The notes under the pieces were generated by a model. The model had not been told where the DNA came from. It ran no database searches and was given only the letters and a program-made list of their open reading frames with translations. A stretch of DNA of 64,000 bases from an uncultured delta proteobacterium (GTDB taxonomy: Bacteria; Myxococcota_A; UBA9160; SZUA-336): assembly GCA_963704165.1 (NCBI GenBank), contig CAVPHD010000001.1:288001-352000 (forward strand), written 5' to 3'. The position numbers and the translations under genes are program-made. Every line of letters begins with the position of its first letter. The first letter of the stretch is position 1. Shown piece by piece: positions 8,783-38,720 of this stretch.

Positions 8783-9462
8783 TCGATCTCTACACGTCGC
8801 CGACGCCGAACGGACACAAGGCGTCCGTCACGCTCGAGGAGCTCGGGCTCCGCTACGAGACGCACGCGATCGACCTCTCGAAGAACGTCCAGAAGGAGCC
8901 GTGGTTCCTGGCGCTGAATCCGAACGGGCGGATCCCGGTGATCGTCGACCGCGATCTCGACGACCTCGCGGTCTTCGAGACCGGCGCGATCATGATTCAC
9001 CTCGCCGAGAAGACCGGGCGCTTGCTGCCGACCGCGCCGGCGCCGCGCGCGCGCGTGATCGAGTGGCTGATGTTCCAGATGGGCGGGATCGGCCCGATGA
9101 TGGGGCAGGCGAACGTCTTCTTCCGCTACTTCCCCGAGAAGATCCAACCCGCGATCGACCGCTACCAGAACGAGTCGAGAAGGCTCTTCGAGGTGCTCGA
9201 CCGGCGGCTCGGCGAGAGCGAATGGCTCGGCGACGACTTCTCGATCGCCGACATCGCGAACTGGTGTTGGGTTCGCACCTACAAGTGGTCGGGGGTCTCG
9301 ATCGACGGACTCGCGAGCCTGCGCCGCTGGCTCGACGCGATGAAGGCGCGGCCCGCGTGCCAGCGCGGAATCGACGTTCCCTTCGCCGTCAAGAGCCTGC
9401 TCGCCGACGAGAAGGCAACCCAGGAATTCGCAGAACGCGCGCGCAGTACGCTGCAGCGTTGA
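8779..9462 (+). CDS. GST, YfcG/YghU (Nu-class)-like disulfide oxidoreductase
   Basis: TTG start overlapping the upstream [43 protein letters not shown]. Confidence 0.9.
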
Positions 9463-38208: not shown

Positions 38209-38236
38209 CTGGGGGGCAGCGCGAGCTGCCCCCCAG
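38209..38236 (-). terminator. Strong GC hairpin downstream of the basic protein gene
   Basis: Perfect 12-bp stem CTGGGGGGCAGC/GCTGCCCCCCAG with a 4-nt loop; only a weak U-tract follows (gcctgtttc). Confidence 0.6.
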
Positions 38237-38273
38237 CCATTACGTCCAACCTCTGAACCGAGAATCGAGAACG

Positions 38274-38654
38274 CTAGCCGCGGCGGCGCGTCGTGCGACC
38301 CGTCTTCTTGCGGGCCGTTGCCCCGCGACGTGTCGCCTTCTTCGCGCGTGCCGTCGTCTTGCGCGCCGTGCTCCGTCGCCGAGGAGCGGCGCGTCGCGCG
38401 GTCTTCTTGCGGCGACCGGCTCCGCCTCGCCGCGCCATCTTCGTGCGGCAGACGTCGCCCTTCTTGTCGATGAAGTAGAGGAAGCCGTCCTCTCGCTTCA
38501 CTCCGGCCTTGGCGACCTTCTGCGGCTTGTTGCGCGCCTGACGTCCGCCGCCACGTGCCATCGCAACACGAGAAACATCGCCCTGCTTGTCGAGATAGTA
38601 GAGATAGCCGGATTCACGCTTGACTCCGACCGTTGCCACTTTACTTGCTGCCAT
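38274..38654 (-). CDS. Small basic tandem-repeat protein with K/R/A/T-rich tail; candidate nucleoid-associated protein
   Basis: Two copies of KVA..GVKRE.G.LY..DK.GDV.R..MAR.GG plus a 46-aa tail with 23 K/R and no acidic residue. Confidence 0.85.
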   Translation of the reverse strand: MAASKVATVGVKRESGYLYYLDKQGDVSRVAMARGGGRQARNKPQKVAKAGVKREDGFLYFIDKKGDVCRTKMARRGGAGRRKKTARRAAPRRRSTARKTTARAKKATRRGATARKKTGRTTRRRG

Positions 38655-38690
38655 CGTTCCCCCCACACGTTCCGGTTACGGAACTGCGAG

Positions 38691-38720
38691 AGGTTATGGA
38701 ACGAAATCCGAGCTTGTAAA
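38691..38720 (-). promoter_or_regulatory. Sigma70-type promoter of the basic protein gene
   Basis: TTTACA-N18-TAACCT about 36 nt upstream of ATG 38654. Confidence 0.5.

Follow-up and report, generated by a model that had tools for sequence, protein, structure and literature searches.

The crenarchaeal 7-kDa chromatin proteins Sul7d (Sso7d/Sac7d) and Cren7 wedge Tyr and Met residues against DNA, the tails of histone H1, of chlamydial Hc1/Hc2 and of mycobacterial HupB, an HU protein with a tail, act in condensation, and H-NS and Lsr2 join an oligomerization domain to a C-terminal domain that carries a hook motif of the form (Q/R)GR. Very few families of chromatin proteins span both bacteria and archaea. 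Here we examine a gene from the window (the entire 64,000-nucleotide stretch of DNA that was analyzed) coding for a small basic protein of such a distribution, and propose that it is probably a sequence-independent nucleoid-associated protein (NAP) that binds and compacts chromosomal DNA and represents a candidate new NAP family.

With Sul7d and Cren7 this protein shares small size, basic character, a predicted all-beta make-up and a stand-alone gene, as well as Lys-rich ends and a beta surface that carries aromatic and Met residues. It differs in that it shows no Pfam match to them, in that neither is among the structure matches listed by Foldseek and VIA-align, which does not exclude a shared SH3-like beta fold, and in having an internal two-fold repeat with natural single-module forms in bacteria and DPANN archaea. 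HU/IHF, inclusive of the tailed HupB, likewise combine a small basic core and dimer-like symmetry with an optional K/A-rich tail, but the candidate lacks a PF00216 match in the Pfam and NCBIfam scans and has no predicted helices. The resemblance to the H1 C-terminal domain, the protamines and Hc1/Hc2 lies in a disordered tail that is rich in K/R/A/T, free of acidic residues and marked by KKTAR-type repeats; it is compositional only, the tail being an optional extension of a predicted all-beta core that bears no relation to the winged helix of H1, and no H1-like or Hc1/Hc2 profile was matched in Pfam or NCBIfam. Prokaryotic histones are, like it, patchily distributed over some of the same taxa (Myxococcota_A, Elusimicrobiota and DPANN) and encoded by small, conserved, stand-alone genes, whereas the predicted all-beta structure of the candidate sets it apart and co-occurrence of the two is not obligatory. 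H-NS and Lsr2 gave no Pfam match, and the ARGG/ARGR stretches of the candidate are only loosely like their hook. The original prediction had separated the protein from HU/IHF and from the histone fold, and at the level of profile HMMs this separation holds, as the PF00216 and PF00808 profiles match other genes of the source genome.

According to Hocher 2022 (PMC7613761), known NAPs are usually encoded by single-gene operons, and a candidate NAP of about 74 aa is described (WP_019177984.1/AGI86273.1) that is lysine-rich, has a pI of 9.6-9.9 and is predicted to adopt a novel fold. Our protein resembles it, as characterized there, in being small, basic and lysine-rich, with a single-gene operon and a predicted novel fold. 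That candidate is reported from Methanomassiliicoccales, Sphingomonadales and Rhodobacterales; the 80 titled loci here include no member of these groups, and, judged by this distribution, it appears to be another family. With 126 aa and a pI of 11.98, the present protein falls within the size limit of 290 aa and the usually basic range given for NAPs in the same paper, and its own promoter-like site, Shine-Dalgarno (SD) site and terminator give it the single-gene layout named there; the other marks of a NAP by those criteria are high cellular abundance and low-specificity DNA binding with enrichment in the nucleoid.

Gene structure and untranslated regions

The 126-aa open reading frame contains the two 33-aa repeats originally predicted, identical at 22 of 33 positions and recurring here with a period of about 41 aa, linker counted, and ends in the 46-aa tail described as 50% Lys/Arg and free of Asp and Glu, both of which are borne out (Table 1). 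The net charge of the protein is about +34, and its core has a pI of 10.4. The mechanical list of reading frames starts the gene at a GTG 12 nt upstream of the ATG; the ATG appears to be the preferable start, judging from the position of the GGGGGGA site and the agreement with the starts of relatives. The gene is single-copy in the source genome and lies between a downstream O6-methylguanine methyltransferase gene and the upstream genes purC, gshB and PBP1A. When five same-genus copies are compared in 10 pairs, each pair differs at 15-32 synonymous but just 2-11 non-synonymous codons; the gene is therefore real and under purifying selection. Its codon score ranks at the 99th percentile among 834 genes, on a measure whose controls failed (groEL 16th, groES 40th).

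Table 1. Features of the gene and its flanking elements, in window coordinates
Feature	Position	Strand	Remarks
Terminator-like hairpin, 12-bp and GC-rich, then a T-rich tail	38209..38236	minus	relatives have hairpins at the same place
Conserved 13-nt 3' UTR motif	38242..38254	minus	directly before the terminator
Open reading frame, 126 aa plus stop	38274..38654	minus	encodes the small, basic protein with its two modules and H1-like tail
K/R/A/T tail, 46 aa	38277..38414	minus	23 K/R, 0 acidic residues; predicted disordered (pLDDT 51-59)
Module 2, residues 46-78	38421..38519	minus	predicted strands 45-48, 58-62, 68-72
Module 1, residues 5-37	38544..38642	minus	predicted strands 4-7, 17-21, 27-31
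G-rich Shine-Dalgarno-like site GGGGGGA	38658..38664	minus
5' UTR hairpin	38669..38684	minus	stems differ in sequence and length among relatives (alignment read by eye)
Putative -10 box TAACCT (TAnnnT)	38691..38696	minus	18 nt from the -35 box
Putative -35 box TTTACA	38715..38720	minus	kept in 10/12 same-genus loci; TTGACA in locus L106

The gene had also been credited with its own promoter-like sequence, a G-rich SD and a 12-bp hairpin, and hence with the layout of a stand-alone transcript. The latter two elements were located. A strict sigma-70 scan gave 0 promoters, the putative boxes falling below the threshold of the scanner (TTTACA-N18-TAACCT, 38720-38691, scores 8/12), yet the pattern TT[T/G]ACA-N17/18-TAnnnT is kept in 10 of 12 same-genus loci, a count that includes the locus itself, and in one other genus. 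The stand-alone layout agrees with that of the family at large: by rough calling of reading frames 70 of 79 loci stand alone; an SD-like word is present in 74 of 79, and in 52 of 79 the 3' hairpin outdoes every one of 10 shuffles.

The 13-nt motif of the 3' UTR recurs with at most two mismatches in 19/20 family-level loci (L088-L105, L107, L032, L071), flanked by variable sequence. Its first 11 nt occur three times in the genome against a shuffled mean of 1.0, one copy lying in an intergenic 3' region of contig C9 near position 9140. An Rfam search of the UTR elements, this motif included, returned no match; possibly it is the site of a regulator or the seed of a 3'-UTR small RNA.

Predicted fold, modules and tails

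AlphaFold2 predicts a six-stranded, helix-free core, which reaches a pLDDT of 87 and a pTM of 0.72 when modeled alone. This agrees with the small beta modules that had been expected from the sequence, and the AlphaFold and Foldseek comparison that had been proposed along with them yields a confident beta core with no matching solved structure: Foldseek against PDB and BFVD gave no match at E 0.001, and VIA-align reached a best Z of 3.2 with the full model and of 2.4 with the core, the latter over 54 aligned positions at an rmsd of 3.1. The model makes a new fold plausible, though the absence of a structural match does not prove it. In the model the two modules of about 40 aa are predicted to form one pseudo-symmetric beta core.

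Across 34 close sequences G16, L18, Y19, D22, G25 and M32 are invariant, together with the repeat-2 partners G57, Y60, D63, G66 and M73; in 84 more divergent sequences only Y60 and G66 remain so, and the Met positions vary. Natural genes for a single module, 40-80 aa long (L128:1532-1657 is one example), were present in 11 of 15 regions retrieved and in 4 viral loci; they belong to Omnitrophota, Nanobdellota and phages, and in two Omnitrophota they lie behind the same aspartate-dehydrogenase-like gene as the tandem forms, with reading-frame starts placed by eye. Because such genes exist, the unit is the 40-aa module, which likely pairs; the single-module forms would homodimerize into the same core. 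At the other extreme, some proteins hold up to 4-7 module copies. Accordingly, the repeats of the original prediction stand, and the 33-aa unit assigned to them is refined to an autonomous module of about 40 aa.

The likeness of the tail to H1 also stands as regards composition, but the tail is not a fixed part of the protein. While 19 of 20 family-level relatives have an acid-free tail of 38-96 aa, an acid-free K/R tail is found in only 11 of the 81 members drawn from mixed phyla (those of Myxococcota type, from Endomicrobia and Woesearchaeota, and at two unplaced loci). As read from these sequences, the H1-like tails are add-ons that recur in separate lineages. A different extension, a conserved basic C-terminal domain of about 90 aa fused to two modules, is found in proteins of about 172 aa (P0096, P0173, P0215, P0223, P0235 and P0236); it had no match in Pfam, nor in NCBIfam or PHROGs for those scanned.

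Extent and distribution of the family

The protein had been said to belong to no characterized family, and database searches are in keeping with this. Scans against Pfam, NCBIfam and PHROGs gave nothing above cut-off, the sole Pfam row being DotY, whose E of 0.023 falls short of its cut-off; the PDB, queried with the sequence and with a profile, returned nothing below E 0.06; and the ESM Atlas returned only clusters of 'hypothetical protein' with no Pfam family in common. PF27482 is annotated on 4 of 120 among the relatives listed and is not common in the ESM Atlas clusters; it may be a marginal match. The name '20S proteasome subunit' on one JGI member was rejected as a local motif match because the other names listed are 'hypothetical protein'. 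No description of the family was found in the published literature, with subscription papers and bioRxiv supplements outside the scope of the search, nor was a paper found for the name 'Cnap1'.

The family counts 645 of 1004 candidates as members and 1376 clusters at 50% identity; a profile of the single module accepted 6409 of 7995 scored candidates, among which may be low-complexity matches. The dominant form is a stand-alone protein of 73-85 aa, and the median pI is 10.4 (n=243 short members). At least 569 of 599 stretches from GTDB genomes carry the family, as do 7 of 199 stretches from viral contigs; collections of isolate phages and plasmids gave no match. The mapping across bacteria and archaea that had been suggested at the outset thus finds it in several bacterial phyla and in Nanobdellota. 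In whole-genome tallies, each of which counts a seed genome picked for having the gene and takes its phylum name from the titles of seed loci, the family occurs in 34/41 genomes of the class of the source genome, 90/91 Elusimicrobiota (87 single-copy, down to genomes of 1.0 Mb), 54/71 Nanobdellota, 24/71 Omnitrophota and 1/81 Nitrospirota sampled. All 24 other genomes of the source genome's own family carry the gene, and where the family is present its copy number is nearly always one. Elusimicrobiota include cultured species, and these very likely carry it too.

The nearest relatives of the window's protein bear the titles Myxococcota or delta proteobacterium, so that its host is likely Myxococcota-related. 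Its core shares 63-73% identity with three Woesearchaeota members and 65-75% with five members from bacteria; the family tree, of 81 columns, cannot give a donor or a direction of transfer. A cross-domain identity of about 65-70%, together with near-universal presence in Elusimicrobiota inclusive of their smallest genomes, probably points to a basic role. Taken as a whole, this is a real, large, unnamed cross-domain family of small basic proteins, outside every family tested. Several loci titled Planctomycetia, Methanosarcinales or Deltaproteobacteria (L001-L003, L034, L037, L028, L030, L042 and L078) have the gene order of Omnitrophota or Woesearchaeota, and their titles are probably loose labels.

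Gene neighborhoods and domain fusions

The neighbors of the gene vary by lineage and define no common pathway. Among 87 loci, an HTH_17 gene lies upstream in 20, mostly from Elusimicrobiota, while in Omnitrophota-type loci an aspartate dehydrogenase gene is the neighbor in 17 and uvrA in 10; archaeal loci have oapABC or herA/mre11 neighbors in 4-5 cases. In four archaeal loci (L042:4554-6072, L059, L067 and L068) the gene adjoins the origin-associated oapA-oapB-oapC, with herA and/or mre11 near in three of them. Viral copies (L083:2995-3261, L084:3001-3129, L086:3001-3135 and L087:3001-3150) sit among genes for primases, helicases, exonucleases and methylases, and one viral copy comes after a gene with a partial Tad2-like match. 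Linkage to tRNA genes was considered and ruled out, a tRNA being present in only 6 of 60 loci.

These neighborhoods bear on whether the protein might act on RNA, as a lineage-specific ribosomal protein, a ribosome hibernation or assembly factor, or an RNA chaperone, with the ARGG stretches and basic tail binding rRNA or mRNA. We regard this as unlikely, while acknowledging that RGG-like motifs are present, that the family is single-copy and near-universal in Elusimicrobiota with the size, charge and conservation of a ribosomal protein, that one member is fused to ASCH (P0253), an RNA-binding domain, and that a divergent rpsF-ssb-rpsR-rplI operon lies nearby in 8 of 87 loci. However, that operon runs on the other strand, in most cases behind an HTH_17 gene, and among the neighbor clusters of the 87 loci the gene never lies inside a ribosomal operon. 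Furthermore, no ribosomal protein family or chain was matched by sequence (the best ribosomal row in the PDB sequence search is uL14 at E 0.91), the family is missing from 47/71 Omnitrophota and 80/81 of the sampled Nitrospirota, and it occurs on the 7 viral contigs. Were the protein ribosomal after all, it would be an unrecognized cross-domain ribosome factor.

Fusions provide mixed evidence, because the partners span nucleic-acid and other domains and some of the fused forms look chimeric. Besides ASCH, the nucleic-acid domains comprise HNH (P0175), an HNH-like domain (P0262) and a D5-like regulator (P0216); equally common are OmpA (P0186), DoxX (P0200), zinc ribbons with GAF, HIT (L140) and a membrane S-layer-like protein (L139). 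Most of the 68 longer relatives have no identified partner domain, and several look like frameshift or assembly chimeras. The attachment of the module to membrane or envelope proteins and to enzymes, along with its multiplication within single proteins, would suit a small adaptor for protein interactions or polyanion binding (its target being polyphosphate, a membrane surface or a partner protein), in which the basic character is incidental. We consider such a role improbable, as several of the long forms may be the chimeras just mentioned, the dominant form is a short stand-alone protein with its own transcript, and acid-free K/R tails that arose independently fit nucleic-acid binding better.

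Relation to HU/IHF and to prokaryotic histones

A role overlapping with that of HU is possible. The only PF00216 genes of the source genome, which is 84% complete, are those for IHF-alpha and IHF-beta, each of which passes its NCBIfam cut-off (G000:C2:27503-27817 and G000:C11:12906-13259). Since exactly two PF00216 genes are found in 36/41 genomes of the class, the class may lack HU, the typing having covered the two genes of the source genome and one other. In Omnitrophota a PF00216 gene is present in 71/71 genomes, and a second one occurs in 0/24 family-positive versus 28/47 family-negative genomes (raw Fisher p 2e-7). The single copies that were read in family-positive genomes (20 of 24) are all IHF-like, and of the 28 second copies 27 were read and are HU-type (22 canonical and 5 divergent), so that the family and HU-type genes never occur together in the 71 genomes. 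The five divergent copies, all from family-negative genomes, have an insertion before the beta-arm region (L176:669-950, L179, L182, L261 and L268). A kinship-aware test, which used a tree built from 90 columns for 49 of the 71 genomes, leaves 2-3 independent pairs, none opposite, with a sign test p of 0.25-0.5. Exchange with HU in Omnitrophota is hence a lead and not a significant result.

Strict replacement of HU as a general rule is unsupported. The family and an extra HU gene are both missing from 19/71 Omnitrophota and from the six genomes of family f5 of the source genome's class. Conversely, one Nitrospirota genome has the protein family together with an HU-type gene, and 91/91 Elusimicrobiota keep 1-3 divergent genes of the HU/IHF family, some of them HU-like (50 read).

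The source genome additionally codes for a 70-aa bacterial histone next to the groES-groEL region (G000:C4:271336-271545; L108:137-346), a gene present in 34/41 genomes of the class. Here the protein family and the histone are concordant in 39 of 41 genomes (both in 33, neither in 6, discordant in 2), and in Nanobdellota the link is weak: both occur in 45 genomes, the family only in 9, the histone only in 10 and neither in 7 (Fisher p 0.048, which ignores kinship and genome incompleteness). These patterns could be taken to mean that the protein is a dedicated partner of prokaryotic histones, as a linker-histone-like factor or a histone chaperone. Yet the six double absences in the class are likely a single event, because all belong to f5, and the single histone-bearing genome among 71 Omnitrophota is without the protein family. 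In Elusimicrobiota PF00808 was detected in 0/91 genomes and the bacterial-histone profile in 0/5. The profiles used here may miss histones of this phylum, because Schwab 2024 (PMC11390915) and Hocher 2023 (PMC10627809) report them. With histones rare or undetected in the sampled Omnitrophota and Elusimicrobiota, an obligatory partnership was rejected, and we consider even a dedicated partnership very improbable.

Proposed function

The reading as a DNA-compacting NAP is favored by the size of the family, its behavior as a core gene, the identity to archaeal members, the single-gene layout, the basic pI and the acid-free K/R tails. Some of the fusions (those to nucleic-acid domains), the upstream HTH_17 genes and the Omnitrophota HU pattern would point the same way. 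Counting against it are the equally common fusions to other domains, the weak independent contrasts for HU, the genomes that have neither the family nor a further HU gene, the coexistence with HU, the RNA-binding nature of ASCH and the Met positions that are not invariant. By analogy with Sul7d and Cren7, the conserved Tyr and Met may wedge or pack against DNA, while the basic, Gly-rich M-A-R-G-G stretches and the Lys/Arg residues of the strands may contact the backbone or the minor groove. Where present, the acid-free K/R tail could add charge neutralization and condensation in the manner of the tails of H1, Hc1/Hc2 and HupB. In lineages without canonical HU, among them that of the source genome, the candidate would likely cover part of HU's general role in coating DNA.

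A bolder form of this proposal, which we put forward only tentatively and with more doubt than conviction, is that of an undescribed chromatin family with a new fold, almost the same in bacteria and DPANN archaea and built as a dimer or pseudo-dimer of the 40-residue beta module. It would serve as a principal DNA packager of Elusimicrobiota, part of Omnitrophota, the Myxococcota-related class and Nanobdellota, having replaced a lost HU and gained H1-like tails several times. A nucleoid protein of this kind would name a missing chromatin component of uncultured lineages in which HU is absent or diverged, and would provide a minimal new DNA-binding scaffold. The source genome also contains another small and very basic reading frame, of 82 aa (G000:C3:509152-509397), whose start is coiled-coil-like and which contains an RKPGRG stretch; it is possibly a further nucleoid protein.
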